A DNA stretch of 64,000 nt from Candidatus Saccharimonadales bacterium (GTDB lineage: Bacteria; Patescibacteriota; Saccharimonadia; Saccharimonadales; JACDFO01), in assembly GCA_038255465.1 (NCBI GenBank), contig JBBSLJ010000002.1, positions 302 through 64,301 of the forward strand. The letters are read 5' to 3'. The position numbers and the translations under genes were made by a program. The notes below the pieces were generated by a model. That model made no database searches and was not told the origin of the DNA. It saw only the letters and a program-made list of their open reading frames with translations. Of the stretch, positions 742 through 62,640 are shown in pieces; position 1 is the first letter of the stretch, and each line of letters begins with the position of its first letter.

Positions 742-939
742 AACACGCCCTTCTACCACCCACCTTTTGCCCTTGTTTTATACCCTATTTTTGCGTAAAT
801 AGCTAGTGTAATCCCTCATACCGATTACGCTTGCCGAATTAAACGCGGCTTGGTCACTTCTTAAGCGGTCCAAATAAACTTCCAAAAATAAGGGGCATAA
901 TCTTTATATGAAACACCGTTTTAAACGGGAAAAACCAGT

Positions 940-15048: not shown

Positions 15049-15125
15049 GCACCCTTAGCTCAGCTGGATAGAGCGTTGGTTTCCGGTACCAAAGGTCAGA
15101 GGTTCGAATCCTCTAGGGTGTACCA
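15049..15125 (+). tRNA. tRNA-Arg (anticodon CCG), CCA encoded
   Basis: Cloverleaf: GCACCCT/AGGGTGT acceptor, anticodon arm TTGGT-TTCCGGT-ACCAA, T arm CAGAG-GTTCGAATC-CTCTA region. The last 30 nt are antisense to the recombinase C-terminus. Confidence 0.9.
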
Positions 15126-16613
15126 TATCCCAGTTTTTGATAATGAGATGACCGCTTCAAACGGTTCCTTAAGTGTTAATTGCAGTTTTTGACCGTCTAA
15201 AGTAGCGTTCGAAAGTATGAAGTCTAGTAGGTAGCGTTTTTGCTCTACTTTCGTACTCTCAGCGTCAAATAGTTCAACAGCACGACTGCATACGTCTAGT
15301 AAGTAGCTTGCACCAATGACAAACGATTTATCACCAGCACTATGGTCTTGCAGGTCATCAAGTAATTCTTTCTGACGTTTTTCAATCTTCTTGACCATTC
15401 GCTCAAACACATCGTGACGAGATTTGAATTGTTTGCGGTCTTTGAATAATTCTTCTAGCTCCTCGTCCAATGCATCAAATTCTGTCTGTAAGCGAGTTTT
15501 AGTACCCGTATAACGTTCTTGTTCGCTGGCATGGTTCTTCTCAATCTCTACGATTAAATTGGGGATTAGCTTTTTGGGTAGTTGAATTGATTTGAGTAGC
15601 TTTCGTATTTGGTCAATGAGTAATTGCTCGTCTATCCATACAGCACCATGCTTACCACCGTATTCTGTGCATTTACCGTAAGTCCTGCCGTTATGCTTGG
15701 GACCGTCAAAGGTAATGGAATAATTACATGTGTGGCACTTAAGGTTTTTGAACAGGAACGGCTTACTGTTGTATTTGGTTTTACCATTTGCACGGCGGTT
15801 TTTGACCTCCTGCACTTTGTCCCATAACCATGGTTCAATAATGGTGTCGTAGTTATGGTCGTACTCTTTGCCTTTGTAGACCATTCTGCCGACGTAAAAT
15901 GGGTTAGTTAATATATCTTCCCATTGCGCGGCACTGATGACCACCGCTTTAGCTGTACGGCTGCGTAATCCAGCAGCCTTCATCTCTTTTGCTATTGCCT
16001 TGTATGACAGTCCCGTAGAACGTAGTTCATAGCCTTTACGTATGTGATAATCACGGTCAGCGTCTAAGCGAATGCCCTTAAAAATTACCTTGCCATTATC
16101 GTCGTGTTCTTGGTAGTTCACGTAACCTATTGGTGCACGACCTATCCAGATACCGTCATCAAGCATTTGGTCAAAACGGCGTTTAACGTTATCCCGTATT
16201 GCACCTGAATAGTAGCTGGCTAAGGCTACGTTTATATCAAACTGAAAGTGTGCCGTTGCTGCTGATTCGGAGTTGATAATAAGGTGGTCGTGCGGAAAGT
16301 GCAGTTCAATCTTATCTTGCTTTGCAAGCCTAGTAAGGATAGATTTTTCTTCTGACGAGGAATCCCTAGTAAATCTGTCCACTTTGTCGTGGACGATTAT
16401 TGACTTCTCTTTTGCCTTTAGTAATGGTTCTAAAACCAGTTCACCAAATCGCTTGCGATTGTCCTTGAAAGCCGTTTCGTCAAACTCAATATATTCGTAA
16501 TCTTTATTTTCAAGCCAGTCCAAGCTCTTGGCATAATCTTCAAGCCTTTTCTTTTGGGCTGGGAGAGCCTTTTTCTGGTCCGGGTCAGAAACCCGTGCGA
16601 TTAAATAGTTCAT
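15096..16613 (-). CDS. large serine recombinase (integrase)
   Basis: N-terminal resolvase catalytic motif [11 protein letters not shown], a recombinase domain (PIGYVNY...[12 protein letters not shown]), the zinc ribbon CHTCNYS...[11 protein letters not shown] and a C-terminal coiled coil. Confidence 0.9.
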
Positions 16614-17155
16614 TTTTCATTCTTTCTGGACATACTTACATTATAGTTGTTTAGTATGCTTTTATCAACTGATTCTGGGAAGTTATTTTTGTTATGCTTT
16701 TTTACTATTTCCAGCAATTTTTTATGCTCATCTTCAGTGATTAACGGCTCGTGCAGCCCTTTGAATAGTTGCCCTTTGTAGCTGATATAGCCAACGTAAT
16801 AGGGGTCTGACAGTAGGCGTTTAGTTCTTATCGTATTCCATGTCTTAATTGTGTTTAAGCCATAGAACATCAACGCAATGTTCATGTTGGCAGATTCTAT
16901 GTTTGTTTCACCATTCGCCAGTTTCTTTAGCGTTTCACGTAAGGCTCTGCCGTAACGGTTTACTTTGTAAAGCCCTGCTGTCTCCGTCGTAAAATATCCA
17001 AAAGGTGGGCGGCTTATTGCATAGCCGTTTTTGGCACGGTGTAATAGACCACGCTTTACTGCTTCTGACATCTGTTTATTATGGTACTGTGACATTGCGA
17101 TGGTTATATCCATCATAAATTTCTCTTTTGCTGATATATTCTCTTGCTTATTCAT
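16610..17155 (-). CDS. recombinase-domain protein lacking the catalytic serine domain
   Basis: It starts within the alpha-E-like region (SEAVKRGLLHRAKNGYAISRPPFGY) and continues through the DPYYVGYISYKG recombinase domain. There is no resolvase N-domain, zinc ribbon or coiled coil. It has its own AAAGGAG SD and overlaps the integrase start by 4 nt. Confidence 0.7.
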   Translation of the reverse strand: MNKQENISAKEKFMMDITIAMSQYHNKQMSEAVKRGLLHRAKNGYAISRPPFGYFTTETAGLYKVNRYGRALRETLKKLANGETNIESANMNIALMFYGLNTIKTWNTIRTKRLLSDPYYVGYISYKGQLFKGLHEPLITEDEHKKLLEIVKKHNKNNFPESVDKSILNNYNVSMSRKNEK

Positions 17156-28824: not shown

Positions 28825-30345
28825 ATGATTACAACCAATGAAAAGATCGGTCAACTAATTTATCATGTAAGACAAGAGCGCGGCATGACCCAAGCTGAGT
28901 TTGCAAAACGGCTTGGCACTAGCCAGTCGGCTGTAAATCGAATAGAAAAAGGCAAACAAAATTTAAGCCTCGATACGCTTGGCCGTATTAGCGATGTACT
29001 CAATAAACAAATTGTTAGTATTGGTGAGGGCTCGATCAATCTTAGAGTCGAAGGTGGCCATGAACTGCACGGGGAAATCACCCTCAAGCGCAGCAAAAAC
29101 GCAGCCGTGGCACTGCTCTGTGCCAGTTTACTTAACTATGGCGTAACGAAGTTTAAGGCCTTTCCTAAAATTGAAGAGGTTTTTCGGATTATTGAAGTGC
29201 TCAAGAGCATCGGCGTGCAGGTCAAATGGCTGCCAAATAATGATATAGAAATTCGACGACCACAAGAATTACAGCTAGATAAAATTAATGTCAATTCTGC
29301 AAAGAAAACCCGTAGCGTTTTAATGCTGTTAGGTGTTCTTATGCACGACCACAAGTCTTTTCAAATACCTTTTTCTGGTGGCTGCAAGCTAGGGGAACGC
29401 ACCGTTGAGCCTCATTTGTATGCACTAGAGCAATTTGGAGTAGGCATAACAGCTAAAACCGGCCGCTACGAAGTTGTCGTCGACAAACAACAGCCAGATT
29501 ATATTGTGTTATACGAAACCGGCAATACAGTGACAAACAATGTACTGATGGCTGCGGCTCGTACAGGCACGGAAACCATCGTTCAAGCCGCAAGTGCTGA
29601 CTATATGGTGCAGGATCTATGTCTTTTCTTGCGAAAGTTAGGCGTAAAGATAGATGGTTTTGGCTCACCAGTACTCAAGATTAAAGGCGTGCCATATATT
29701 AAAAAGAACGTTACCTACGCCCCAACCGAAGATCCGATTGAGGCCATGTTTTTTATTTCTGTCGCCACGACTACTAACTCGCACATTACCATAAAGCGCG
29801 TTCCGCTTCGCTGGATTGGCCTAGAGTTATTCAAATTAAAGACTATGGGGCTCCCATTTACTGTCCATGATGTATACAAGGCCGACAATGGCGTCATAGA
29901 ACTGGCTGACATAGAAATCCATAAACATAATGGCAGTATGATTGCACCGCTTGATAAAATACACCCGAATCTATGGCCAGGAGTTAACCCGGATTCAATC
30001 CCCTATTTTGTGCCGATTGTTGGCGTTTGCAAGGGCCGTACACTCATACATGACTGGATATTCGAGAACCGAGCTATTTACTATACGGAAATGACTAAAG
30101 TGGGGATGAACATTGAGCTTGCCGACCCGCATCGTGTTTATATCACTGGTCCTACAAAATTTAATAACGCCGAGGTTGTTTGCCCGCCAGCTCTTCGCCC
30201 TGCTAGTTTGCTCCTTATCGGTATGTTAGCAGCGGAGGGAACAAGTATCCTGCGTAATGTCTATACGATCAATCGTGGATATGAAGATATTGCTGCCCGC
30301 TTGAACAGCCTTGGCGCCAAAGTCACCGTTCTTCATGAACTGTAA
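28825..30345 (+). CDS. murA: UDP-N-acetylglucosamine 1-carboxyvinyltransferase with an N-terminal XRE-type HTH domain
   Basis: Residues 1-65 form an HTH (RGMTQAEFAKRLGTSQSAVNRIEKGKQN). The rest is colinear with the MurA/EPSP-synthase fold, including the catalytic-Cys loop FSGGCKLGERTVEPH. Confidence 0.85.
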   Translation: MITTNEKIGQLIYHVRQERGMTQAEFAKRLGTSQSAVNRIEKGKQNLSLDTLGRISDVLNKQIVSIGEGSINLRVEGGHELHGEITLKRSKNAAVALLCASLLNYGVTKFKAFPKIEEVFRIIEVLKSIGVQVKWLPNNDIEIRRPQELQLDKINVNSAKKTRSVLMLLGVLMHDHKSFQIPFSGGCKLGERTVEPHLYALEQFGVGITAKTGRYEVVVDKQQPDYIVLYETGNTVTNNVLMAAARTGTETIVQAASADYMVQDLCLFLRKLGVKIDGFGSPVLKIKGVPYIKKNVTYAPTEDPIEAMFFISVATTTNSHITIKRVPLRWIGLELFKLKTMGLPFTVHDVYKADNGVIELADIEIHKHNGSMIAPLDKIHPNLWPGVNPDSIPYFVPIVGVCKGRTLIHDWIFENRAIYYTEMTKVGMNIELADPHRVYITGPTKFNNAEVVCPPALRPASLLLIGMLAAEGTSILRNVYTINRGYEDIAARLNSLGAKVTVLHEL

Positions 30346-31709: not shown

Positions 31710-32735
31710 ATGTTCACAGCCGAACAGTTCACGGAAGAAATTACTACCATATTATTGCTCAGTATTCTTACGTTCTGCGTGGCTATGCTTTTGACGCCGA
31801 TCTATACATATTTTGCTTATAAGCATCAGCTCTGGAAGCGCTCCCGTACCCATTCAACCACCGGCGAAGTGCTCACCGTTATAAGTAGTCTTCGAATTAA
31901 GCGAACCGTACCGCTTATGGCTGGGCTTATTACTATAGCTGCAGTTACTTTGGTAACTGCCGTGTTTAATCTTGATCGCCACCAGACTTGGCTGCCATTG
32001 GCAGCTCTTTTGGGCGGTGGAGTGGTTGGTCTTATCGATGATATTATCAACATTAAAGGCAGGGGCGGTAATGTTGCGGGCTTACGAGCGCCAATAAAAT
32101 TCGGCATGATCACAGTCGTTGCGGCAATCGGCGCCTGCTTCTTTTATTACAAACTTGGCTACACAACTATACATATCCCATTCGCGGGAGACCTTATGCT
32201 TGGATGGCTACTCATTCCACTCTTTACCCTAGTAGTCGTTAGTACAAGTAATGCCGTAAATATTAGTGATGGTATGGACGGTCTGGCGGGTGGGCTTTTA
32301 ATAAGTGCTTACAGCGCTTTTGGTGTTATTGCCGCATTGCAGGGAAATTTTGGAATTGCCGGCTTTTGTTTGACAGTTGCCGGCGCCTTGCTGTCATATG
32401 TTTGGTTTAATATTCCGCCGGCACGCTTCTTTATGGGGGACGTAGGTTCGTTTTCGCTTGGGACGGCCTTGGGCGTTGTAGCTATGCTGACTGATACGCT
32501 ATTCTTGCTGCCAATAATTGCAATAGTGTTCGTTGCAGAGGCCGGTTCAACCCTGATTCAAATACTCTCCAAAAAAATACTTCATCGTAAGATTTTTATT
32601 GCAGCACCCGTACATCACCATTTTGAAGCTTCGGGCTGGCCAAAGACAAAGGTAACAATGCGTTTTTGGGTGCTTGGTCAAGCATCCGGGGCAATCGGTA
32701 TTATTTTGGCGCTTATCGGCGGATACACCACTTAG
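31710..32735 (+). CDS. mraY: phospho-N-acetylmuramoyl-pentapeptide transferase
   Basis: It has the motifs NAVNISDGMDGLAGG, GDVGSFSLG and APVHHHFE, and ten TM helices. Confidence 0.95.
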   Translation: MFTAEQFTEEITTILLLSILTFCVAMLLTPIYTYFAYKHQLWKRSRTHSTTGEVLTVISSLRIKRTVPLMAGLITIAAVTLVTAVFNLDRHQTWLPLAALLGGGVVGLIDDIINIKGRGGNVAGLRAPIKFGMITVVAAIGACFFYYKLGYTTIHIPFAGDLMLGWLLIPLFTLVVVSTSNAVNISDGMDGLAGGLLISAYSAFGVIAALQGNFGIAGFCLTVAGALLSYVWFNIPPARFFMGDVGSFSLGTALGVVAMLTDTLFLLPIIAIVFVAEAGSTLIQILSKKILHRKIFIAAPVHHHFEASGWPKTKVTMRFWVLGQASGAIGIILALIGGYTT

Positions 32736-32776
32736 ATCGGTAAATTTAGTTTATCGTTATTTAACAGATTAAATTA

Positions 32777-32893
32777 TTAACGGCTTAACACGTCGAGGAG
32801 GTTAGACTGATAACCTGTTTTTAGCCAAACAATGTAACTACCAGCCGCAGTAATAAGCGTTAATAAGATGACTGTACGGTGCCATTCTTTCAT
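32777..32893 (-). CDS. candidate 38-aa single-TM micro-protein translationally coupled to the sortase
   Basis: This ORF is not in the ORF track. An ATGA stop/start overlap links it to the sortase gene. Translation: MKEWHRTVILLTLITAAGSYIVWLKTGYQSNLLDVLSR. Confidence 0.3.
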   Translation of the reverse strand: MKEWHRTVILLTLITAAGSYIVWLKTGYQSNLLDVLSR

Positions 32894-33495
32894 GTAGGGT
32901 CTTTCAATTTAGCTTGTACAACTAGCCGGTCTTTAGCAGTCCAGATAGGCGTACAGGTGTAAAGCGTAAGTAACGGCTGGTCAGTTGGCGCTTCAATTTC
33001 TACGGCCGAAGCCGGCACAACGAATACTCTCGTCACTTCATATACATATATTGCTTTATCCCAGTAGAGTACTATTTCATCTCCTGTTTGTATTTTATCA
33101 AGATGATAAAATACCGCCGGATCGTTATATGTAAATCGATGTCCGACAATTACCGTATTACCACCTTGGTCAGGGTTACTAGTTTTAGGACGCCGCCAGA
33201 TCCCTTTGCTTAACGCTGCTGCTGTTTGGCCTTCATTAATTTTCTCTTGTAAAACCAACCTAGGTATTACTAGGGTATTTTCATCGGGCACTTGCTCATT
33301 ATTTTGGCTACCGCCATTGTGGTATGCCTCTACTAGCGACGGCTTAGATGGGGAGGATTTCTTCCACCAATACGAAAGATTCGGCAGTAATGGAGCAAAC
33401 ATAATGTAAGCGGCCAAAAATACAACTAAAACGCTAAGCCCATTATTTATGCGCTTCAAGCGTGGCTTACCCTTTTGGTGTTTCATATCTTTCAT
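32890..33495 (-). CDS. sortase (transpeptidase)
   Basis: N-terminal TM anchor, catalytic His (NTVIVGHR), TLxTC box (LTLYTCTP) and Arg (DRLVVQAK). Confidence 0.85.
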   Translation of the reverse strand: MKDMKHQKGKPRLKRINNGLSVLVVFLAAYIMFAPLLPNLSYWWKKSSPSKPSLVEAYHNGGSQNNEQVPDENTLVIPRLVLQEKINEGQTAAALSKGIWRRPKTSNPDQGGNTVIVGHRFTYNDPAVFYHLDKIQTGDEIVLYWDKAIYVYEVTRVFVVPASAVEIEAPTDQPLLTLYTCTPIWTAKDRLVVQAKLKDPT

Positions 33496-33547
33496 ATTTT
33501 ACTCCTAAAATGCATTAACATAAGCGAAACCATGCTATGGAATATTG

Positions 33548-33576
33548 TTGACATATATAGTATTTTACAGTATCAT
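33548..33576 (+). promoter_or_regulatory. strong promoter for the 55-aa LANTG ORF
   Basis: TTGACA-N17-TATCAT lies 30 nt upstream of the ATG, and an AGGAG SD precedes the start. Confidence 0.6.
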
Positions 33577-33606
33577 ACGTTAGATACAAAACATTAGGAG
33601 AAAATA

Positions 33607-33774
33607 ATGAGTATTGAAGGTCAAGTTTTAGGTGCTTCTAGCGTAGCCGGTGGCGGCGCTGCAGCAGCTTCACAACTAGCAAACACTGGCAGCCCAGCAT
33701 TAGTTGGAATTCTAGCCGGGCTTGCGATGATTGTTGTATTGGGTCTAGTTACCCGTTCAGCACAGAGTCGTTAA
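33607..33774 (+). CDS. 55-aa micro-protein consisting essentially of a sortase sorting signal (LANTG, TM helix, basic tail)
   Basis: This ORF is not in the ORF track because it is under 60 aa. Translation: MSIEGQVLGASSVAGGGAAAASQLANTGSPALVGILAGLAMIVVLGLVTRSAQSR. It has its own promoter, SD and terminator, and lies divergent from the sortase. Confidence 0.6.
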   Translation: MSIEGQVLGASSVAGGGAAAASQLANTGSPALVGILAGLAMIVVLGLVTRSAQSR

Positions 33775-33792
33775 GTAATAAGTTAAGGCAAA

Positions 33793-33832
33793 GGGAGGGT
33801 GTCTAAGATTCTTTCTTAGACCCCTCTTTTTC
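33793..33832 (+). terminator. rho-independent terminator after the LANTG ORF
   Basis: The stem GGGAGGGTGTCTAAGA / TCTTAGACCCCTC (one bulge) is followed by TTTTTCTATT. Confidence 0.7.
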
Positions 33833-33842
33833 TATTGCAATT

Positions 33843-35099
33843 ATGAATAATAGTACACTTTTAATTTTGTTGACCCTGGCCATTGTGTCTCTGATTGATT
33901 ATATACCTAGAGCATTCTTATGGGTAAAGAAAGCCATCCAACCGCAAGTTGGTTATGGTCCTGTTCCACGCTATCTTATTATGCCTACCGTATACGGTAA
34001 CATCTCTTATTTGCAGAATATTAAATTCCTAAAACGATATGCCGACAAGGTAGTTATCTGTACTTCAGCATACGAATCACAAGAGTTTTACGGGGCGCTT
34101 CGAAAAGCTTGCCGAAAATATAATTTTAAATACATCTGTGTGCAATTGCCACACGCCAACGGGCGGCCAATTAAAAATGCATATACAATTTATAAGGGCG
34201 CGTTATCTGATATCAACCGTCTTGGCGCACGGAAAGATACCCCGTGTTTACTAATGGATGCGGACACTTACTCCAACGCCAATGTAAACAATCTAGTTCG
34301 GACGTTTATTCATAAAAATCTTGATATTGCTTCGCTTCGTTGTGAAGTAGATAATCCAAGGACTGTTATTGAACAGCTGCAAGCATTTGAGTATCGTTTG
34401 GCCATGGACAACAGACGTATGGATCCATGGTTAACTTCTGGCGCCTGCAACCTTGCTAAGGCGGGCGTTATTAAACATGTATTCTCAAAACACTCTAATT
34501 TCTTTGCTGGGGGGGATATTGAAATTGGTAAACTAGCTCAAGTAATGGGGTATAAGGTTAAGCACATTAATTTTACCTTTTATACTGCAGCACCTGACAC
34601 CTTTAAGGCTTGGTACAACCAGCGACTTATTTGGTTTGCCGGTGGGTTTAGACACCATGTAGCCAATATGGGCAGTTTTGGTTGGCACCACTTCTTTATG
34701 CTGTTTTATAATTCACTGCTTCTATACATGCTTTTCCCACTCCGTTGGCTCGAACTTATTAACTTTCCGCTAACACTCGTTGCAGCAATTTTTCTTTCAT
34801 GGATATATACCGCTATTCTTGCTTATAACAGGGGCTGGAAGGCCGTATATCTCCTGTTGCCTTTTTATGCGTTTATACAGTCGATGTTTATTCTACCTTT
34901 GGCCGTTGGAAGATACGTTAAACTATCTTGGATTCAACGCAGTTTCGGTCTGCTTAAGTACGACCTAACAAACGTAAGCCTGGCTACAAGACTACTTTAT
35001 AAGGGCCTTAACGTCTCAAGCGTTTTATTCATCATCTACACTGCGACAAACTTTACAATGTCACGATGGTATTACTGGAGCCAAAACGGTTGGTACTAA
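33843..35099 (+). CDS. membrane-embedded family 2 glycosyltransferase (synthase-like)
   Basis: LLMDADT (DxD), QAFEYRLA and QRLIW (resembling Q(Q/R)xRW), with several C-terminal TM helices. Confidence 0.7.
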   Translation: MNNSTLLILLTLAIVSLIDYIPRAFLWVKKAIQPQVGYGPVPRYLIMPTVYGNISYLQNIKFLKRYADKVVICTSAYESQEFYGALRKACRKYNFKYICVQLPHANGRPIKNAYTIYKGALSDINRLGARKDTPCLLMDADTYSNANVNNLVRTFIHKNLDIASLRCEVDNPRTVIEQLQAFEYRLAMDNRRMDPWLTSGACNLAKAGVIKHVFSKHSNFFAGGDIEIGKLAQVMGYKVKHINFTFYTAAPDTFKAWYNQRLIWFAGGFRHHVANMGSFGWHHFFMLFYNSLLLYMLFPLRWLELINFPLTLVAAIFLSWIYTAILAYNRGWKAVYLLLPFYAFIQSMFILPLAVGRYVKLSWIQRSFGLLKYDLTNVSLATRLLYKGLNVSSVLFIIYTATNFTMSRWYYWSQNGWY

Positions 35100-35143
35100 T
35101 AGCACCTAGGTATCTTTTATCGATGAAAGTATTCTAGGGACTT

Positions 35144-36565
35144 TTAGTTAGTCTTTGATTTATTATATTCTTCTTGCCATTCGGCTAGGCGTTTGCGCTG
35201 TTGCTCGTTTGGCTGAACAACAGGACGGTTCTTGATAAGTAGGGTGATTGCTTCATCTACCGTAAAGCCCTTGGTGATAAGGTAAGCGGCAGCCATCGTC
35301 GGCCCCCTGCCCTCACCTAGTTGACAGTGAACATATACAGAACCACCATTAGCAATATGTCTCCTGATAAAATCAGTTCCTTGTTTTAAGGCTTTTAATG
35401 TAGGAGGATGCCAATCACGGGTTGGGAGTGAAAGTACTTCAATATCTTCAGGAGGTTTTGGTGATGCTGTCGTTCGCATGCTTACTATTCCTGTAACACC
35501 CCACGATCGAAAAAGACTGTAGCTCCTGCCTGAATATTTACCCCCCAGATACAGACCGGGTGCCACATGGCTGTAACGCAAGGATGGATGTGAGCGCATA
35601 AATGATCTTAAGCGCTGTCCGTAACGATGCAAGCGCAACTTAATACTACGAACAGCTTTTACTAAAGGTGCGACTTCTGTCGGTGCAGGCGGAACAATAA
35701 TCCGGGCCGAGAGTTCGCCCCCGATAATCGTGATTGGTAGGCTGATCTTTCGACTATCGTCGTCGGACAAAACGCTTCTTGGCGCCGTAGTGATAAGTAA
35801 CTTATTTGCTCGATGGACTTCAACTACAGAATCTACGTTTTTGCCAAATGATCTGACTACAAACCACCACAAAAGTCGATGTATTTTGAATGATTTAATA
35901 ATGGCCAGTTGCACGAGACCCGGCGCATGGTTATATGGAAATAACGGTACGCCTAAAACATTATGATTTCCCTGATTCGCAACAATAAATGTATAACCGT
36001 GGACTGTCCGCGCGTCTTTATTATTTAGGGCAAACTCGTACGTTTGTAGTTTTGCACTGCGTGATTTTTTAAGCGCACTCCATGCATACGCAGCTTCTCC
36101 TAGCTTTTTTTTGAGCTTACGGCTGGTTGATTTAATACCCTCCGTCCAGACGCCCATGTGCATATCCAGCACCAATGGCTCGCCATTAATTGTAGCGAGA
36201 TCAACACGCTCGACTACATAAGTACTGTTTGCGTACAGTTCAAGACATTCTATATGCGATGCCGGCAGCCCATAAAACTTCGCTAAAACATTTGCTGTGC
36301 CCCCCGGAAGTATTAGTACTGGCAACTGCTTCAGTCCAAATAATTTGAGCGCAGCAATTATCGTTCCGTCACCCCCATACACGGCTACGGCAGCGTAATC
36401 TTTAAGTCGCACGTTTGCCAGAGCTTTTTCCATTTCAGGAGGAGAAACAATAGTGATAATTCGGTACTTAACTAATTTCTCGTCCAGTACGTCTCGAATT
36501 TCAGCAAGAACGCCGTCCTGCTTCCCTGCCGTGATACACACAACTACCAAAAGTTTCCTAAGCAT
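35144..36565 (-). CDS. fusion of a DAGK-family lipid kinase domain and a dual-specificity (CX5R) phosphatase domain
   Basis: The N-terminal LLVVVCITAGKQDG...YGGDGT...LPGGTANV matches the YegS/BmrU/DAGK catalytic domain. The C-terminal VHCQLGEGRGPTMAAAYLI is an HCX5R(S/T) P-loop. Confidence 0.75.
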   Translation of the reverse strand: MLRKLLVVVCITAGKQDGVLAEIRDVLDEKLVKYRIITIVSPPEMEKALANVRLKDYAAVAVYGGDGTIIAALKLFGLKQLPVLILPGGTANVLAKFYGLPASHIECLELYANSTYVVERVDLATINGEPLVLDMHMGVWTEGIKSTSRKLKKKLGEAAYAWSALKKSRSAKLQTYEFALNNKDARTVHGYTFIVANQGNHNVLGVPLFPYNHAPGLVQLAIIKSFKIHRLLWWFVVRSFGKNVDSVVEVHRANKLLITTAPRSVLSDDDSRKISLPITIIGGELSARIIVPPAPTEVAPLVKAVRSIKLRLHRYGQRLRSFMRSHPSLRYSHVAPGLYLGGKYSGRSYSLFRSWGVTGIVSMRTTASPKPPEDIEVLSLPTRDWHPPTLKALKQGTDFIRRHIANGGSVYVHCQLGEGRGPTMAAAYLITKGFTVDEAITLLIKNRPVVQPNEQQRKRLAEWQEEYNKSKTN

Positions 36566-53651: not shown

Positions 53652-55463
53652 ATGCGTATATCTGATGCTCTGGTGGAAAAATTATTAGTTAATGCCGATC
53701 GGCTAACTAATGAGCAGCTTGCTGCGCTTAAAGAACAGCGTGAAGCTGAGAAAAAGCCACTGCAGGATCTTGTTGTCCAAAACAATATGATTGATGAAAA
53801 AGATCTGACGCGTATCTACGCCGAGGAGATTGACATACCGTATGTTGAGCTTAACCCTAAAGAAATTAAACGCGAAGTCTTAAAACTCATTCCTGAACGG
53901 GTCGCGAGACAATACAACGTGGTTTTGTTTGGGATAGAAGGAGACAAAACCAAGTTACTGGCGATGGAAGATCCTGATGATATCCAAGCCGTTAGCTTCT
54001 TGCAGAAACAGCTCGGCGAGGACATAAGGGTTCATATAGCCACCAGAAGCAGCGTTCAGGCGGCACTCGACCAGTACCGAGGTAGCATGGGCAATGAAAT
54101 TACTAAAGTTGTCGCCACCGAAGACGAAGAAGAAATCAAGGAAGAAGAGCTTAACGAGCAGGACTTGGCCGAGGACTCCCCGATTGCCCAGACGGTTAAT
54201 TTAATTATTGAGTACGCGATTCGTTCCAGCGCTAGTGACATACATATTGAACCACGCGATAGCTTTGTAATTGTCCGCTACCGCGTAGATGGCGTCCTGC
54301 GCGAAGCCAACAAGTTGCCCAAGAAAGTTCATGGCGCCCTTGTCTCACGCATAAAGATTCTGAGTAACCTTAAAATCGACGAACGCCGCGCTCCACAGGA
54401 CGGCCGTTTTAAGATACAGGTTGGCTCAAATACGTACGCCTTACGGGTATCCACACTGCCGATTACTGAAGGCGAGAAGGTTGTTATGCGTATTCTCAAC
54501 GAAGGCAGTCAAGCCGCAGCGCTGGAAGAGCTTGGTTACTGGGGAGCAGCACTTAGTTTGGTCAACAGTGCAATTAAGCAACCACACGGCATGGTTCTAG
54601 TGACTGGTCCGACCGGCTCAGGTAAGTCAACCAGCCTCTTTAGCGTTTTAAGCATACTCAACAAACCAGCTGTCAATATCTCTACTATTGAAGATCCAGT
54701 TGAATATAAAATTCCGGGAGCCAACCAGACACAGGTTAACCCAAAGGCCGGCATGACCTTTGCTGCCGGCCTGCGCGCTCTCTTACGGCAAGATCCGAAC
54801 ATTATCATGGTTGGTGAGATTCGAGACTCTGAGACCGCCGGGTTGGCCGTCCAGGCAGCCCTAACCGGGCACTTGGTCTTTGCGACACTGCACACCAACA
54901 ATGCAGCGACCTGTCTGCCACGCTTGCTTGATATGGAAATCGAACCGTTCTTAATTGCCAGTACTGTCCGTGCCGTTGTCGGTCAGCGGCTCGTTCGACG
55001 ATTATGCGTTGATTGCCGAGATGAAGTAACACCAGAGGCAGCAATGATTAAACAGCTGGAGGGAATTTTTGGCTTCGGTGATGCCGGCGTCATGAAGCGC
55101 GTTCACCAGCTGGAAGAACAAGCGCTTGAAGGTGGAATTGGCAAAGCTAATGCTGGCAAAAGTAAAGTCGATACAACCAAGCTGTCAACTACCGATACTA
55201 AGATAACGCGGCTATTCAAGATGCATGAAGGCGGCTGTGACTCGTGCGGACGTATTGGTTACCGTGGCAGAATGGGTATTTATGAGGTACTTGGTAACAG
55301 CGCCGACGTGCAGAGGCTAATTATCGCCAACGGCACAAGCGACCAGATCCAGCAACAGGCTATCAAGGAAGGCATGATAACTATGCAGTTTGACGGCTTT
55401 ATCAAAGCACTTCGCGGCCAAACAACGGTAGAAGAAATCCTTAGAGTCACGGCAGAAAAATAA
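53652..55463 (+). CDS. pilB: type IV pilus assembly ATPase (GspE/PilB family)
   Basis: It has a T2SSE N-domain, Walker A GPTGSGKST, Asp/His boxes and the tetracysteine CVDC...CDSC. Confidence 0.9.
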   Translation: MRISDALVEKLLVNADRLTNEQLAALKEQREAEKKPLQDLVVQNNMIDEKDLTRIYAEEIDIPYVELNPKEIKREVLKLIPERVARQYNVVLFGIEGDKTKLLAMEDPDDIQAVSFLQKQLGEDIRVHIATRSSVQAALDQYRGSMGNEITKVVATEDEEEIKEEELNEQDLAEDSPIAQTVNLIIEYAIRSSASDIHIEPRDSFVIVRYRVDGVLREANKLPKKVHGALVSRIKILSNLKIDERRAPQDGRFKIQVGSNTYALRVSTLPITEGEKVVMRILNEGSQAAALEELGYWGAALSLVNSAIKQPHGMVLVTGPTGSGKSTSLFSVLSILNKPAVNISTIEDPVEYKIPGANQTQVNPKAGMTFAAGLRALLRQDPNIIMVGEIRDSETAGLAVQAALTGHLVFATLHTNNAATCLPRLLDMEIEPFLIASTVRAVVGQRLVRRLCVDCRDEVTPEAAMIKQLEGIFGFGDAGVMKRVHQLEEQALEGGIGKANAGKSKVDTTKLSTTDTKITRLFKMHEGGCDSCGRIGYRGRMGIYEVLGNSADVQRLIIANGTSDQIQQQAIKEGMITMQFDGFIKALRGQTTVEEILRVTAEK

Positions 55464-55478
55464 TAGGTAACAATACAT

Positions 55479-56690
55479 ATGCAATTCAGCTACACCGCAC
55501 AAACCAAAGAAGGTAAAACCATTCAAGGAACGGCTGACGCGGCCAATAAAGAAGCCTTAGTTAGTCTTCTTGCCAAACAGGGTGCTAGGCCAATTGTGAT
55601 TAGATCTGAAGGCGAAAAAACCAATAAGTCCAAAAGAGGCAAAAAGGTTAAATCCAAGGATCTAGTTGTTTTTACGCGCCAGCTTTCTACCATGGTCTCT
55701 GCGGGCGTACCCCTTACCCGCTCACTCGCAACAATGCAGACTCAAACTGAGAGCAAATACTTCCGACAAGTATTAGCAAATATTATGAAAGAGGTAGAGT
55801 CGGGGCAGCCGCTTGGTGATACATTTGCCAAGTACCCGAGTGTTTTTTCAGAGGTATACGTCAACATGGTTCGTGCCGGCGAGGCTGGTGGTATTTTAGA
55901 TGAGATCTTAAAACGACTCGCTTCGCAGGTTGAACAAGATGCATCGATGCGTAAAAAAATTAAAAGTGCCATGATGTATCCGACCGTTATATTTGGCATT
56001 ACGATCCTAGCTTTTTTTGGGATTATGATATTTGTCATACCTAAACTTGGCAAGATCATTGAAGATTTGGGCGGCCCTGATGCTGAGTTGCCGGTTTATA
56101 CCCAGGCTATGCTTGGTGCCAGTAAATTTATGCAAAGCAACGCAATACTTATTGGTATAGCACTTTTTGGCGCTATTTACGCGTTTAGACGTTACATTAA
56201 GACGCCCAAAGGCAAATTGCAGTGGCACGGAGCACTACTACGTATGCCAGTCATAAAGACACTGATAACTAAAATTGCTATCGCACGGTTTGCAAGAACC
56301 TTTGCGTCTTTGATGTCGGCTGGCGTTGCGGTACTTGATGCGCTTGAGGTTACGGGGGGAGCCATTGGCAATAAAGTTATCGAGAACGAGCTTAAAGAAG
56401 CGGCAAAAGCTGTCAGAAATGGCAAGCAACTCAGCGAGCCGCTGTCTCATAGTAAGCACTTCCCCGCTATCGTTCCGCAGATGCTTGCTATTGGGGAGGA
56501 AACCGGTCAGATTGATACCATTCTAATTAAAGTTGCAGACTTTTACGAAGAAGAGGTAGAGACAACGATAGACGGCCTGAGCTCGCTAATTGAGCCACTT
56601 ATGATCGTAGTCTTAGGTGGAATGGTCGGCCTCATTGCCGCCTCCGTAATGGGTCCGATTGCTTCGCTTAGTAAGAATGTAGGAACGTAA
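55479..56690 (+). CDS. pilC: type IV pilus platform protein (GspF/PilC family)
   Basis: It has two T2SSF repeats and three TM helices, and is adjacent to pilB. Confidence 0.9.
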   Translation: MQFSYTAQTKEGKTIQGTADAANKEALVSLLAKQGARPIVIRSEGEKTNKSKRGKKVKSKDLVVFTRQLSTMVSAGVPLTRSLATMQTQTESKYFRQVLANIMKEVESGQPLGDTFAKYPSVFSEVYVNMVRAGEAGGILDEILKRLASQVEQDASMRKKIKSAMMYPTVIFGITILAFFGIMIFVIPKLGKIIEDLGGPDAELPVYTQAMLGASKFMQSNAILIGIALFGAIYAFRRYIKTPKGKLQWHGALLRMPVIKTLITKIAIARFARTFASLMSAGVAVLDALEVTGGAIGNKVIENELKEAAKAVRNGKQLSEPLSHSKHFPAIVPQMLAIGEETGQIDTILIKVADFYEEEVETTIDGLSSLIEPLMIVVLGGMVGLIAASVMGPIASLSKNVGT

Positions 56691-56695
56691 ATATC

Positions 56696-56723
56696 TTGAT
56701 TTGATACTGGTTATGATTATAAT
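56696..56723 (+). promoter_or_regulatory. promoter of the major pilin gene
   Basis: TTGATT-N16-TATAAT lies about 70 nt upstream of the ATG. Confidence 0.5.
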
Positions 56724-56794
56724 CATCAGCAGATACTTACGCCTGTGTAAGATCAATAAAGTTATAAAAATTTAGAAAGGGTGGGCATACAAAC

Positions 56795-57244
56795 ATGTCT
56801 CTTAAGCAAAATAATAAGGGTTTCACAATTGTTGAACTCTTAATCGTTATTGTCGTTATTGGTATATTAGCGGCGTTGGTTATTACAACCTTTACGGGTA
56901 TCCAACAACGAGCTCGTAATACCGAACGACAAACAGACGTTAAAGCCATTCATGGGCAGGTGGAAGCCTACTACGCTCAGAACGGACGGTATCCAACACT
57001 AGATAACATGAACGACGCAGGTTTTCGAACGGCAAACATGAAGGGTCTTGATATTGATGCATTGAAAGATCCAAAGGGTACGGCCGGAACCTTAGTTGGT
57101 GCAGCAGCTGCTAACGTCTACAGTTACGACGTACAACGAGCTGGTGGTGGTACGTGTGATAACACTACTAATGACTGTGCACAGTACACGCTGACTGCTA
57201 CTAATGAGGGTGGTGGTACGTATACTAAGACTAATTTGAACTAG
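56795..57244 (+). CDS. pilA: major type IV pilin
   Basis: It has a class III signal (KGFTIVELLIVIVVIGILAALVI) and its own promoter and terminator. Confidence 0.9.
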   Translation: MSLKQNNKGFTIVELLIVIVVIGILAALVITTFTGIQQRARNTERQTDVKAIHGQVEAYYAQNGRYPTLDNMNDAGFRTANMKGLDIDALKDPKGTAGTLVGAAAANVYSYDVQRAGGGTCDNTTNDCAQYTLTATNEGGGTYTKTNLN

Positions 57245-57261
57245 TATTTTCCTAGTCAGAC

Positions 57262-57291
57262 AAAAACCCGGGCATTTCGCTCGGGTTTTTG
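57262..57291 (+). terminator. rho-independent terminator after the pilin gene
   Basis: AAAAACCCGGGC-ATTTC-GCTCGGGTTTTTG. Confidence 0.8.
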
Positions 57292-57308
57292 TATAATAAA
57301 GCATAAGC

Positions 57309-57761
57309 ATGACGTGGTTACGACGACCGTTACTTGAAAACGGGTTTACAATTTTAGAGCTATTGATTGCATGCTTTATATTTCCGATAATTGTCGTGGG
57401 CATATCTAACGCCTATGACGCAGTTCGTAAATCGTATACCACCGCCCGAGAACTCAATGAAATATATGCCGTGTTAAGTGCCTGCCCTGAAATAGACCGG
57501 GCCTTGGAGTTTAATTCACTCACCAGCTCGACCAACTGTTTTCCAAACAATACCTTCCAGTCAGAAGGAGCCGGAACGAGCACCATTGTATATAGCCCTG
57601 TGCTAACTGTTACAAACACCGCAGATCTTCCAATAGCCGACCCACTTAAATCAGTAAACGATTCGAAAGTCGTTGATATTAGTGTTGGCTTTCAGAAAAG
57701 CACCGCTCCGCCCCTTAGATTACGTATGCTTGTTACAAGAAATGGGGTAGGTCAGCAGTGA
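57309..57761 (+). CDS. minor pilin (prepilin-type N-terminal cleavage/methylation domain)
   Basis: ENGFTILELLIACFIFPIIVVGI. A TATAAT box (57292-57297) lies 11 nt before the ATG. Confidence 0.8.
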   Translation: MTWLRRPLLENGFTILELLIACFIFPIIVVGISNAYDAVRKSYTTARELNEIYAVLSACPEIDRALEFNSLTSSTNCFPNNTFQSEGAGTSTIVYSPVLTVTNTADLPIADPLKSVNDSKVVDISVGFQKSTAPPLRLRMLVTRNGVGQQ

Positions 57762-58564
57762 ACATCCGGCGTATAAGACTTATGCAACTAAAAAGCACCG
57801 AGGCGGGATTCACGCTGCCAGAAATGATGACCGTGCTGTTTATAACCGGACTGTTTAGCTCGCTCATTCTCTTTTTTGCATTCAGTTACTGGCGTTATGG
57901 CGCTTTACTTGAGGCGGATATGGATACATTTGTAACAAGGCTTAATTCTGGTGATGTGTTGCGCGAGCTGGTCGGTTCATCTACCGGCATGACGATCCAA
58001 AATGGCTTGCCTGATCCAAACCCGCTCGTAATTGACCCCACCGACTCTACGGGCAATTATTGGATCCCTATACATGCTATCCCGGGTAGTCGCCCCATTG
58101 GCAGCACGGGTAGCTACACCCCATTGTCATATTTTAAGCGTATTAGCTTTAACAGTTCCAACCAAGCGGTCATGAACGGTCAGTACCCCTACGAGGACGA
58201 ATATGTCTTGTACCTTGATGGCACGGCCAAGCAGCTCAAGCTACGCTCAATCGCAAATACGGCCGCCACTGGAAACAAGCTGAAGACCAGCTGCCCGCCG
58301 GCAATTGCCAGCAACAGCTGCCCGGCAGATAGAGTCATTGCGGGCGATATTGAATCGGTTGATCTCAGGTTTTTCTCGAGAACCGGAAACTTAATTGACT
58401 ATACATCGGCCTATGATCCCGATATTGATCAGTATATCGGGCCCGATTATCCGGCTGTAGAAGTCATGGAGTTTAAGATTACGCTGACAAAGAAACCGTT
58501 TTTGCAAACCACTAACGCCACCAGAACAAGCACCATTATCCGCATAGCACTGAGGAATACATAA
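57758..58564 (+). CDS. minor pilin
   Basis: EAGFTLPEMMTVLFITGLFSSLILFF. It overlaps the upstream gene by 4 nt. Confidence 0.8.
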   Translation: MNIRRIRLMQLKSTEAGFTLPEMMTVLFITGLFSSLILFFAFSYWRYGALLEADMDTFVTRLNSGDVLRELVGSSTGMTIQNGLPDPNPLVIDPTDSTGNYWIPIHAIPGSRPIGSTGSYTPLSYFKRISFNSSNQAVMNGQYPYEDEYVLYLDGTAKQLKLRSIANTAATGNKLKTSCPPAIASNSCPADRVIAGDIESVDLRFFSRTGNLIDYTSAYDPDIDQYIGPDYPAVEVMEFKITLTKKPFLQTTNATRTSTIIRIALRNT

Positions 58565-58565
58565 T

Positions 58566-59990
58566 ATGAAGACTACCCAACAAAACCAACGTGGCTCAAT
58601 CCTCGTATCAATCATGATTATTACCCTGTTTTTAACAACTTTTATATTTAGCTTAATGGTGCTTGCGAACGCCAATCTTGTCCGTGCCCGTCACCGTATA
58701 CTTCTGCTCCAAGCTATGTACGCAGCCGAATCCGGTGCAGATAGTGCTGTCGCCGCCCTAAACAATGGCAATGATGCCTATACCGGCTCTACTTCAGATG
58801 TCCAGATTCTCTCTGCCGAAACGTACCGGTCTACCTATACCGTAACGGTGGCGCCAGGATCAAATGACAAAGAAAAAATTATTACGGCAGTTGGGAAAGT
58901 TTTTGCTCCTAAAACAGAAGCCACACCTAGCTTTACCCGAAGCATAGAGGTGATAGTGCAGCGAACCAGCCTGACCTCAAGTGCATCGATCATGAGCCGT
59001 AATATTATTGACATCCATTCCGGCGTTAAAAGTGTACGTGCAAAGGATGTATATATTAACGGTTACCTGAATATGAACAAGGACACGACTGAATTTATTG
59101 CAGAGAACGTTACGGTCGGCGATCGTAACACCGGAGCTGGCAATTGTTCGATTGGCGGCGAAGGCAAGCTAACCAAGCCGGCGACATTCTACAATGCCGG
59201 TCAAACAAAAACTAACCTCCTCCTGGCGTTTAACAATTGTATTGCTCCTCCTGGGAACAGTAGTAACACTAACTTTACTGTCACCGCCAATGAACCGAAC
59301 ATTCCTAAAATACAGTCAACCTACATCCCATGGGCCGAATATATGAATAACACTTACCAAAATGCGCCCGGGGGCTGCAGTGATTGGACAACCGGGTCAT
59401 CACCGCGCAGTATCCCAAGCACGGGAAATACAAAAAAAACGCACTACCCCAATTCTGCCCCAAATGTTAGCACTGCCTGTGGGACGGGCGGCGACCTTAA
59501 TCTCGGTAGTACACGATATGACATACGTGATCACGCACATATACGGGCCAGCTTGTGCGCCGCAGCGGCATGTACGCCAAGCTTTTATAATCCCGATACT
59601 GGCCCCTCCGGCATAAAGTTCGTCTTTGTTGAGGGCACCATTAACTTCAACAGTTTCCAAACTGTTTCGGGCAGCGGTTCGATTGTGTTTGTTTCATATG
59701 GCAGCGATCCCGCCTCTAAAGCCAGTGACTGCCCACTCGGTGGGGCTGTGTATCTTGGTAACAGCGGTACAACTGTTGGCCCAGCAGTTTATTTTTTGGC
59801 GAACAACGGTATCTGTCTAGACAAAACCAGGTTTGGGGCTAGTCCATCCCTTGGGGGCATTTCCGGAAAAAACGTTTATATTGCCACCAACCCGGGCACA
59901 CCGTTTGACCTAGGCCTTGACCCACTCTTCCCGGTTGATCAAATCCCGGTTGATCTTTCATGGAAAGCCATTAGATTCAGACGGCTATAA
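58566..59990 (+). CDS. large PilX-N-like pilus-associated protein (candidate tip or adhesin component)
   Basis: The N-terminal QRGSILVSIMIITLFLTTFIFSLMVLANANLVRARH resembles the PilX N-terminal domain. The 474-aa Cys-containing, Asn/Thr/Gly-rich body has no recognisable family. Confidence 0.6.
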   Translation: MKTTQQNQRGSILVSIMIITLFLTTFIFSLMVLANANLVRARHRILLLQAMYAAESGADSAVAALNNGNDAYTGSTSDVQILSAETYRSTYTVTVAPGSNDKEKIITAVGKVFAPKTEATPSFTRSIEVIVQRTSLTSSASIMSRNIIDIHSGVKSVRAKDVYINGYLNMNKDTTEFIAENVTVGDRNTGAGNCSIGGEGKLTKPATFYNAGQTKTNLLLAFNNCIAPPGNSSNTNFTVTANEPNIPKIQSTYIPWAEYMNNTYQNAPGGCSDWTTGSSPRSIPSTGNTKKTHYPNSAPNVSTACGTGGDLNLGSTRYDIRDHAHIRASLCAAAACTPSFYNPDTGPSGIKFVFVEGTINFNSFQTVSGSGSIVFVSYGSDPASKASDCPLGGAVYLGNSGTTVGPAVYFLANNGICLDKTRFGASPSLGGISGKNVYIATNPGTPFDLGLDPLFPVDQIPVDLSWKAIRFRRL

Positions 59991-60042
59991 ATGATATAGT
60001 TATCTGGAATAGCTTATGCTTTGATGGGCAGCATACGAATAC

Positions 60043-62332: not shown

Positions 62333-62340
62333 GATAAGTT

Positions 62341-62640
62341 ATGAATTTAGATATCAAAAATATTATTGCCAAGCTGGAACCCATAGTCAAAAATGCTAAA
62401 CGATATACGGTATTTGTTTTTATACTTGCCGTAGTTGGCACGTACGGCTTCTTGGTTTTTCGCATCAACACGCTTGCCAGCCAGGAACCTGATGAAGACG
62501 CAGTTACAGAACGCCTAAAGACCGTACAGCGCCCAAGAATTGATGAAGATGCACTAAGCAAAATTGAAAAGCTTGAAGACCAGAACATTCAACTCAAAAC
62601 ATTGTTTCAAGACGCCCGCGACAACCCGTTTGTTGAGTAG
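62341..62640 (+). CDS. small bitopic protein, last gene of the pilus cluster
   Basis: 99 aa, with a single TM (YTVFVFILAVVGTYGFLVF) and an acidic C-terminus. Confidence 0.45.
   Translation: MNLDIKNIIAKLEPIVKNAKRYTVFVFILAVVGTYGFLVFRINTLASQEPDEDAVTERLKTVQRPRIDEDALSKIEKLEDQNIQLKTLFQDARDNPFVE

Follow-up and report, generated by a model that had tools for sequence, protein, structure and literature searches.

Described systems closest to the locus

In Actinomyces oris, GspA is full-sized, has a signal peptide and owes its glycosylation to an LCP enzyme. This highly expressed, glycopolymer-bearing glycoprotein is anchored by the sortase SrtA together with SafA, a transmembrane (TM) protein of 52 aa whose gene comes straight after that of the actinobacterial housekeeping sortase (PMC9282373). 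In the Firmicute Mediterraneibacter gnavus, srtB4 lies inside a capsule gene cluster and is required for capsule presentation (PMC13121745). Canonical LPXTG/LAXTG proteins, as modelled by TIGR01167, end in a pentapeptide, a hydrophobic segment and a basic tail. Among GT2 synthases, small membrane partners such as IcaD, PgaD and BcsF are also well known.

The locus described here lies in a stretch of 64,000 nucleotides from a Candidatus Saccharimonadales bacterium (contig JBBSLJ010000002.1), hereafter the window. It is a module of four parts: a sorting-signal mini-protein, a synthase-type GT2, a sortase and a micro-protein in the position of SafA. Full-text literature searches returned no description of this four-part module. 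An earlier sequence-only reading knew of no described system of the kind; with NF058583 and SrtA–SafA–GspA as precedents, the idea is less novel than that reading supposed.

The module resembles Actinomyces SrtA–SafA–GspA, a close functional parallel. In both cases, the sortase gene (that of a housekeeping class E enzyme in A. oris) is followed by the gene for a small single-pass membrane protein. Expression of the substrate is high in A. oris and is predicted from sequence to be so here, and in A. oris a glycopolymer is linked to the wall via a sortase-processed polypeptide, as may also be the case here. However, the substrate in the window is only 55 aa long and has no signal peptide, and the enzyme linked to it is a synthase-type GT2. 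The srtB4 system likewise has a polysaccharide-linked sortase without which the polymer is not presented at the surface, but it belongs to a multi-gene capsule cluster, its sortase is class B-like and the cited part of the source reports no mini-substrate (PMC13121745). Pam pili (10.64898/2026.03.03.709456) were considered as a relative and set aside, being built of unrelated Ig-like pilins.

A stand-alone mini-protein gene under purifying selection

The mini-protein is encoded by a 55-aa ORF at 33607..33774 on the forward strand, and the protein given in the sequence-only reading is its exact translation. It amounts to a sorting signal preceded by a head of 23 residues, which opens with MSIEGQVLGA and continues as a Gly/Ala/Ser linker. 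LANTG occupies residues 24-28 (nt 33676..33690) and is followed by a hydrophobic stretch at about residues 29-48, the putative TM helix, and by the basic tail TRSAQSR.

This ORF is a real gene. A first homology search found 15 homologues at 67-83% identity, and a profile search extended the conserved family to 50 clusters of 53-81 aa, each of them stand-alone and each from Saccharibacteria or metagenome contigs. When 1.84 billion representatives were scanned exhaustively with the profile, 17 matches of 38-66 aa came up, and no larger protein ending in the mini-protein sequence was among them. Across 10 loci, mean pN was 0.25 and mean pS 0.67, the latter saturated, and omega ranged from 0.07 to 0.41, indicating purifying selection. 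Since the homologues stand alone and are under purifying selection, both a chance ORF and a pseudogene left over from a longer LPXTG protein can be excluded; the expression signals given below agree with this, and the gene is as genuine as had been claimed. The head motif could also have been a general C-terminal module of Saccharibacteria, an idea rejected because the exhaustive scan yielded no large protein bearing it. Sorting-signal models aside, the mini-protein has no match in Pfam or NCBIfam, and the PADLOC defence models match neither it nor the sortase or GT2. It is best read from these features as an abundant single-pass membrane protein specific to Saccharibacteria.

Sorting signal, head and topology

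Pentapeptide, hydrophobic segment and basic tail together form a canonical tripartite sorting signal, in agreement with the sequence-only reading. The window mini-protein passes the TIGR01167 cut-off only marginally (16.5 bits against 15.9); within the family, 28 of 40 sequences give a match to this model at E <= 1. NF058583 (LAXTG_small_WW) is a curated model of likewise small LAXTG proteins, with a profile of about 54 positions, but it describes a different family: the window mini-protein has no match to it at E <= 1, and the weak matches of 23 of the 40 members (10-16 bits) fall far below the cut-off of 65.

Unlike canonical LPXTG/LAXTG proteins, the mini-protein carries neither a signal peptide nor a passenger domain, and sequence conservation extends into its TM segment. 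The head (MSIEGQVLGASS...) lacks a basic n-region and so an N-terminal Sec signal peptide, as had been noted. Heads in the family contain on average 0.08 K/R and 1.2 D/E, while tails contain 2.9 K/R; with heads nearly free of K/R and tails basic, the predicted topology is N-out, C-in. The TM segment is unusually well conserved for a discarded sorting signal, at G34, I42, L45 and L47 in particular, and this would fit a long-lived contact between this helix and one of the GT2, as expected of a synthase subunit.

The best-conserved part of the protein is its N terminus, MS[VI][DE]GQVLG, within the first 10 residues, which contradicts the notion of the head as mere filler of a sorting signal. Neither S2 nor R50 varies among 40 sequences, M1 is likewise invariant in the family, and the length of the head is tightly kept. 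These features could be accounted for if the sortase joined heads to one another or to themselves, giving a Gly/Ala-rich polymer or a cyclic RiPP-like peptide. The free N-terminal amine left after removal of Met would then attack the LANT-acyl enzyme, and sortases do cyclise or oligomerise such substrates in vitro. We consider both this outcome and this route very improbable, as the mini-protein has no lysine or pilin motif, class E-like sortases offer no in vivo precedent, no maturation or export genes are co-conserved, and neither the pairing with the GT2 nor the existence of motif-less clades would be explained.

Conservation of LANTG, put forward for testing in the sequence-only reading, is high but incomplete. 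L24, T27 and G28 are each at least 90% conserved in the 40 sequences, and xxxTG is kept in 57 of 66 distinct sequences and absent from 9. Two subclades have lost LxxTG and have nevertheless kept both mini-protein and GT2. The core role of the protein therefore cannot be display by sortase alone, and sortase processing is dispensable for the conserved core function.

Expression signals

A sigma-70-like promoter, TTGACA-17-TATCAT, is found at 33548..33576 on the forward strand; it agrees with the consensus at 11 of 12 positions, a consensus match only, and is the top site in the scanned region. Comparable promoter-like sites (at least 9 of 12 positions), ending 26-49 nt before the mini-protein ATG, occur in 14 of 16 loci. 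The Shine-Dalgarno sequence AGGAG (33596..33600, forward strand) begins 11 nt upstream of the ATG, and a GGAG-type site is present 9-18 nt upstream of the start in all 16 loci (9-14 nt in 15 of them).

Between the mini-protein gene and the GT2 gene lies a GC-rich hairpin with a T-run (33790..33834, forward strand), a predicted intrinsic terminator or attenuator. The 68-nt intergenic region (33775..33842) folds at -26.8 kcal/mol (z = -5.4), a stability reached by 0 of 200 shuffles, and the inner stem of the hairpin was also listed by a separate scan. Ten of 15 loci have a hairpin with a T-run at this position, with varying sequence. An Rfam search of 32000..36000 found no riboswitch or known sRNA, its sole match being a sub-threshold and irrelevant snoRNA.

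Some 12 nt separate the end of the T-run from the GT2 ATG, and the GT2 start is without a Shine-Dalgarno sequence in 12 of 14 loci, the window locus included. A promoter belonging to the GT2 was not found. From this arrangement, the GT2 is most likely expressed through read-through past the hairpin. The mini-protein gene had been taken for an independent unit; it does have its own promoter, Shine-Dalgarno sequence and terminator, but the likely dependence of the GT2 on read-through means that the unit is not a closed one. A strong Shine-Dalgarno sequence and a terminator ahead of an enzyme gene without a Shine-Dalgarno sequence also predict that the mini-protein is made in large, substrate-like excess over the GT2.

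The GT2 is the obligate partner

The invariant, obligate partner of the mini-protein is the GT2, and the sortase is not. In 14 of 14 loci whose sequence extends that far, the GT2 gene directly follows that of the mini-protein, at a gap of 8-68 nt, even though GT2 identity drops to 43% among the paired loci and the flanking genes vary freely. The sortase is head-to-head with the mini-protein gene in 7 of 15 loci and not adjacent in the other 8, so the synteny that had been put forward for testing with both neighbours holds in full for one of them only. One of the sortase-adjacent loci belongs to a deep branch; its mini-protein has LPATG and its GT2 is only 43% identical. The motif is kept in 7 of 7 sortase-adjacent loci versus 6 of 8 without the sortase, a sample too small for significance, and no sortase was found within +-10 kb of the motif-less loci L021 and L022. 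More remote GT2 relatives, at 38-40% identity, have no mini-protein gene and are partnered instead by an exported protein of about 335 aa.

These observations weigh on the interpretation first given to the locus, in which the mini-protein is a minimal sortase substrate whose naked head of about 27 aa decorates the peptidoglycan, with the GT2 mechanistically unlinked. The canonical tripartite signal and the adjacent sortase are in keeping with it, as is the finding that neither the window nor the other loci examined contained a further sorting-signal ORF of 80 aa or more. However, synteny is stricter for the GT2 than for the sortase, the GT2 has no promoter or Shine-Dalgarno sequence of its own and probably relies on read-through from the mini-protein promoter, the motif-less subclades retain the pair, and the top conservation of the N-terminal decapeptide is left unexplained. 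We regard this interpretation as decidedly unlikely. Its factual basis holds, that is, the gene, the sorting signal and the adjacency of a sortase; what has changed is that the GT2 is the stricter partner and LxxTG is dispensable.

The main rival to the carrier reading developed below casts the mini-protein as a subunit bound non-covalently to the synthase, or as its regulator. Its TM helix would pack on the GT2 and its head would cap or gate the exit of the channel, with the sorting signal either incidental or used by the sortase for turnover or release in some lineages. The obligate synteny with the GT2 can be cited for this, together with the conserved TM positions and invariant R50, which suggest a specific helix contact, and the persistence of the mini-protein family after loss of LxxTG in two subclades. 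In distant loci the gap to the GT2 is only 8-27 nt and holds no terminator, as in subunit operons. IcaD–IcaA, PgaD–PgaC and E. coli BcsF are similar in that a small membrane protein is encoded beside a membrane-embedded GT2 synthase. Yet the mini-protein has no sequence similarity to IcaD, PgaD or BcsF, bears a sortase signal, and is encoded upstream of the enzyme, separated from it by a terminator. It is not translationally coupled as in icaAD and pgaCD, and its Shine-Dalgarno sequence and terminator predict an excess of peptide. An incidental motif is also hard to explain where L, T and G have been kept under saturated synonymous change, and a sortase stands head-to-head in 7 loci, the deep branch included. 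On this evidence a subunit role seems rather unlikely.

The sortase and its micro-protein

A membrane-anchored sortase is encoded at 32890..33495 on the reverse strand, divergent from the mini-protein gene. It matches PF04203 with E 3e-28 and 98.5 bits (cut-off 26.6) and TIGR01076 with 62.8 bits (cut-off 39.35). The catalytic His, Cys and Arg (in GHRF, TLYTC and DRLVV) are intact and kept in orthologues, so that the enzyme appears, by its motifs, to be catalytically intact. Orthologues are found at the equivalent position in L002, L005, L007, L008, L010 and L011. It cannot be assigned to class E, to whose LAxTG motif the sequence-only reading had pointed: NF033747 gives 77.1 bits against a cut-off of 160, and although class E is its best class model, those for class D, SrtD and class C come out nearly as high.

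Downstream of the sortase gene, and joined to it by an ATGA overlap, is a 38-aa single-pass micro-protein (32777..32893, reverse strand), predicted to be translationally coupled and in the position of SafA. Such a micro-ORF had been pointed out in the window, and it proves to be conserved. By tblastn and direct reading of the sequence, seven copies of 32-38 aa were located in the window, L002, L005, L007, L008 (two) and L010, each beginning at or over the sortase stop codon. M1, K2, E3, R6, T7 and L10 are invariant, and an aromatic-x-x-W motif marks the outer end of the TM segment in 6 of the 7 copies. There is no match in Pfam or NCBIfam. Unlike SafA, the micro-protein has MKEWHRT and aromatic-x-x-W, and the FPW motif is absent from all copies. 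By its placement it can be considered a positional analogue of SafA.

The GT2 synthase

The enzyme downstream of the mini-protein is a membrane-embedded GT2 of 418 aa (33843..35099, forward strand), matched by PF13632 with E 4e-13. A PDB sequence search gave only noise (E > 0.5), and the fold was approached through an AF2 model (pLDDT 88.4, pTM 0.87). Foldseek against the PDB ranked hyaluronan synthases first (8smn, E 3e-12, TMq 0.60), with matches to them spanning E 3e-12 to 1e-9 at TMq of about 0.6; BcsA and chitin synthases came next. The model thus has the processive synthase fold of the hyaluronan synthase/BcsA/chitin synthase type, in which a GT-A domain is combined with a predicted TM channel. 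D139 and D141 (DxD), D225 (G223-G-D225), Q260, R261 and W264 are invariant. The final motif reads QRLIW as opposed to the canonical QxxRW, and the Arg that normally precedes Trp is absent. In L007 and L009 the GT2 has GalE-type epimerases as neighbours, which hints at UDP-Gal and UDP-GalNAc, besides UDP-Glc and UDP-GlcNAc, as candidate donors.

A possible carrier or anchor for a surface polysaccharide

The mini-protein is very probably coupled in function to the GT2. The reading that we favor, tentatively, goes further and makes the N-out mini-protein a glycan carrier or anchor for the synthase, with the sortase cutting LANTG between T and G (LANT/G) and transferring the product to peptidoglycan. 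In this scheme, the mini-protein would work with the hyaluronan-synthase-like GT2 encoded immediately downstream. Its short acidic head would insert N-out without a signal peptide, by YidC-type or spontaneous insertion, leaving the conserved MS[VI][DE]GQVLG segment and the Gly/Ala/Ser/Thr linker exposed outside, beside the exit of the synthase. There the head may serve as carrier or anchor of the GT2 polysaccharide, with invariant Ser2 and the Ser/Thr-rich linker as candidate attachment sites. The sortase would then move the 27-residue head and its cargo onto lipid II or peptidoglycan; in the subclades without LxxTG, the same conjugate would stay anchored in the membrane. Cleavage by the sortase is probable in the lineage of the window, while a covalent glycan-carrier role is possible but on balance doubtful. 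Together, the evidence suggests, without proving, a peptide stem tying a surface polysaccharide to the cell wall.

Several observations count against the carrier reading. The mini-protein has no N-terminal signal peptide, and we know of no proven sortase substrate without one. Eight of 15 loci have no sortase beside the mini-protein gene, and LxxTG has been lost in two subclades. The active site of the GT2 is cytoplasmic and the head is predicted to be outside, with no demonstrated chemistry to join them. The conserved TM segment of the mini-protein and the QRLIW motif of the GT2 in place of QxxRW are further points of this kind.

A more specific version of the carrier reading, which we judge unlikely, would make the mini-protein a ribosomally made, membrane-anchored primer. 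Ser2 would be presented to the GT2, the polysaccharide built on the head, and the conjugate passed by the sortase to peptidoglycan, or kept in the membrane in the motif-less clades. The membrane-kept and sortase-transferred conjugates would then parallel lipoteichoic and wall teichoic acid, respectively. If true, this would be a protein-primed, sortase-anchored pathway for wall polysaccharide, replacing lipid-linked or LCP routes in organisms that cannot make their own lipids.

Implications for Saccharibacteria

Saccharibacteria spend their lives attached to bacterial hosts, and next to nothing is known of their surface chemistry. Cleavage of the mini-protein, if it occurs, would make it a sortase substrate that has neither signal peptide nor passenger domain, which would stretch the accepted rules for such substrates. 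If it also carries the polymer of the GT2, the module would represent a new means of wall attachment for a polysaccharide and would probably be a determinant of contact with the host.

Gene content and expression signals of the locus

The mini-protein gene (33607..33774, +) encodes exactly the 55 residues quoted in the sequence-only reading, in a window of 43.5% G+C; the named relatives of its locus are all Candidatus Saccharibacteria or Saccharimonadales MAGs. Also placed as claimed are the sortase gene (32890..33495, -; PF04203, E 3e-28; TIGR01076, 62.8 bits versus a cut-off of 39.35), a 38-aa micro-ORF overlapping the sortase stop codon by ATGA (32777..32893, -) and a glycosyltransferase-2 (GT2) synthase gene (33843..35099, +; PF13632, E 4e-13). 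The expression signals ascribed to the mini-protein gene are likewise present: a sigma-70-like promoter, TTGACA-17-TATCAT (33548..33576, +), matching 11/12 consensus positions, a Shine-Dalgarno AGGAG read from the sequence (33596..33600, +) and, in the 68-nt region before GT2, a hairpin (-26.8 kcal/mol, z = -5.4) followed by a T-run.

Conservation and dN/dS, two of the checks proposed for the ORF, bear it out as a real gene. An initial search returned 15 homologues of 54-70 aa (67-83% identity), and a broader profile 50 clusters, every one 53-81 aa; in the longest, start codons look to have been called too far upstream. When 1.84 billion cluster representatives were scanned exhaustively with a profile, 17 matched, all 38-66 aa, and in no case did the sequence form the C-terminal part of a longer protein. 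Nei-Gojobori counts over ten loci (mean pN 0.25 against a saturated mean pS of 0.67; omega 0.07-0.41) make purifying selection clear. A GGAG-type ribosome-binding site precedes the start by 9-18 nt in 16/16 loci (9-14 nt in 15 of them), and a sigma-70-like site (at least 9/12) lies ahead of the gene in 14/16.

Topology and sorting signal

Across 40 diverse members, invariance is confined to S2 and R50, and conservation reaches at least 90% at M1, G9, G15, L24, T27 and G28; close relatives share a fixed N-terminus, MS[VI][ED]GQVLGA throughout, as well as fixed TM positions G34, I42, L45 and L47. The heads carry about one acidic residue and almost no K/R (mean 0.08), the tails a mean of 2.9 K/R, from which the positive-inside rule predicts an N-out, C-in topology. 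The motif, hydrophobic segment and tail of an LPXTG signal are all found in the mini-protein, and a signal peptide is absent. Its TIGR01167 score is 16.5 bits (cut-off 15.9), and the same model picks up 28/40 family members at E <= 1.

The sorting signal is conserved in most lineages, with xxxTG kept in 57 of 66 distinct sequences. Subclades retaining the motif include MSVEGQVLGAS...LANTGNP, MSVDSQTGVG...LANTGLP, MSIDSNVAGIT...LAGTG and MSVNGSVLGAT...LP[AN]TG. The motif is lost in MSSDNAVLGTATTGG...AANND or ATTTD and in MSVD.HVLGT...NTHRT or SSNHK, both of which retain the N-terminal motif, TM helix, basic tail and GT2; in the +-10 kb flanks of two motif-less loci no sortase was found. Survival without LxxTG, together with the conserved TM residues, favours the main rival to the model preferred below, in which the mini-protein would be a non-covalent synthase subunit like IcaD, PgaD or BcsF. 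Motif conservation elsewhere in the family speaks against that rival, which we consider doubtful.

The view that no such system has been described holds for the module of mini-protein, GT2, sortase and micro-ORF, for which full-text literature searching found no description, but not for tiny LAXTG proteins as such. These are not unheard of: NCBIfam curates NF058583, a 'LAXTG motif-containing small protein' family, from which the present family is distinct as judged by its scores of only 10-16 bits against a cut-off of 65.

The synthase as the constant partner

The mini-protein and the synthase form a conserved pair. In 15 independent loci, window included, an orthologous GT2 (416-430 aa) lies 8-68 nt downstream of the mini-protein gene in 14/14 with sequence there (window, L001-L004, L006, L007, L009, L010, L011/L012, L015-L018), and all other genes around the pair vary. 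The expected synteny thus stands for GT2 but only in part for the sortase, which is divergently adjacent in 7/15 loci (window, L002, L005, L007, L008, L010, L011) and absent within 3-4 kb in the remaining eight. This stricter GT2 linkage is left unexplained, as is the conserved N-terminus, by the original proposal of a naked wall peptide, which is very improbable. The sortase synteny that does exist counts against a synthase subunit. In the deep branch L011, GT2 is just 43% identical, the peptide (MSVNGSVLGATT...VLPATGSN) carries a canonical LPATG, and a sortase is again adjacent. GT2 relatives at 38-40% identity lack the mini-protein gene and instead pair with a conserved exported protein of ~335 aa (L013 4220..5233; L014 4202..5224; L019 3718..4719; L020 1479..2495), which has no Pfam match in these four loci and may be an alternative extracellular synthase partner.

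An AF2 model of GT2 (51 sequences; pLDDT 88.4, pTM 0.87) has Xenopus and Chlorella-virus hyaluronan synthases as top Foldseek PDB matches (E 3e-12 to 1e-9, TMq ~0.6), with cellulose synthase BcsA and chitin synthases ranking next. Among the invariant residues are D139-x-D141, G223-G-D225 and Q260-R261-x-x-W264, the last reading QRLIW versus the canonical QxxRW. GT2 is thus a membrane-embedded enzyme of synthase-translocase type with a cytoplasmic active site. GalE-type UDP-hexose 4-epimerase genes directly downstream of GT2 (L007 4524..5552; L009 1868..2890) hint at Gal or GalNAc in the polymer; L011 has a neighbouring epimerase or dehydratase gene. Convergent with GT2 in the window is a 473-aa fusion (35144..36565, -) of a diacylglycerol/lipid-kinase catalytic domain (PF00781) and a C-terminal dual-specificity phosphatase domain (PF00782).

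The T-run ends ~12 nt ahead of the GT2 ATG, leaving no space for a separate promoter. A hairpin and T-run of differing sequence occupy this position in 10/15 loci, and the GT2 start lacks a Shine-Dalgarno in 12/14; the most distant loci have no hairpin, and there the two genes are just 8-27 nt apart. Together, the hairpin and the missing Shine-Dalgarno predict a large excess of peptide over enzyme, a pattern common among structural products and substrates but rarely seen for subunits needed in equimolar amounts.

The sortase and its small partner

The adjacent sortase is intact and belongs to the sortase superfamily, but it cannot be assigned to class E, since it scores 77 bits on the class E model (cut-off 160). 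The coupled micro-ORF proved to be conserved, with seven copies of 32-38 aa, each starting at or over a sortase stop codon. M1, K2, E3, R6, T7 and L10 are invariant, and in 6/7 the TM helix has an aromatic-x-x-W at its outer end. In L008, two tandem sortase paralogues (731..1360 and 1495..2103, -) lie upstream of a single mini-protein gene, each followed by its own MKEWHRT micro-ORF. SafA, a 52-aa protein whose gene directly follows that of the housekeeping class E sortase in actinobacteria, binds SrtA and shields it from signal peptidase (PMC9282373). The micro-ORF is an analogue of SafA in position and architecture and lacks its FPW motif.

Genomic neighbourhood

An MraY gene (31710..32735, +; TIGR00445, 198.6 bits) adjoins the sortase operon, and in L011 genes for a Mur ligase and for a protein of EPSP-synthase fold lie near the cassette, placing it in a cell-wall gene neighbourhood. 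A 506-aa protein (28825..30345, +), whose N-terminus looks by eye like an XRE-type helix-turn-helix, recurs just upstream of the locus (L002 745..2268; L003 2381..3901; L005 1526..3049; L007 658..2184; L010 617..2140). The L011 gene in the corresponding position matches PF00275 (EPSP-synthase/MurA fold); should the protein in the window adopt this fold as well, it would be an uncommon fusion, one that may link regulation with the synthesis of wall precursors. Elsewhere, a tRNA-Arg gene (15049..15125) shares 30 nt with the 3' end of two successive minus-strand ORFs (15096..16613, 16610..17155) that look like a resolvase/recombinase-type pair, and 15049..17155 may be an integrated mobile element. 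The ORFs at 53652..62640 (+), among them a 603-aa one resembling an ATPase, a membrane ORF of 403 aa and several with prepilin-like N-termini (such as ...KGFTIVELLIV), resemble a type IV pilus cluster by eye.

A possible mechanism

The best overall model, which we hold tentatively, makes the mini-protein head a glycan carrier or anchor. The protein would insert N-out, its head would carry or anchor the synthase's polymer, and the sortase would cleave LANT|G and transfer the head to peptidoglycan; in lineages without the motif the conjugate would stay membrane-bound. One precedent is found in A. oris, where SrtA anchors GspA, a highly expressed glycoprotein bearing glycopolymers (PMC9282373). 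Another is M. gnavus srtB4, which sits among the genes of a capsule cluster and is required for presentation of the capsule (PMC13121745). The boldest reading, a peptide-primed, sortase-anchored polysaccharide, is improbable, and would be of high interest if true.
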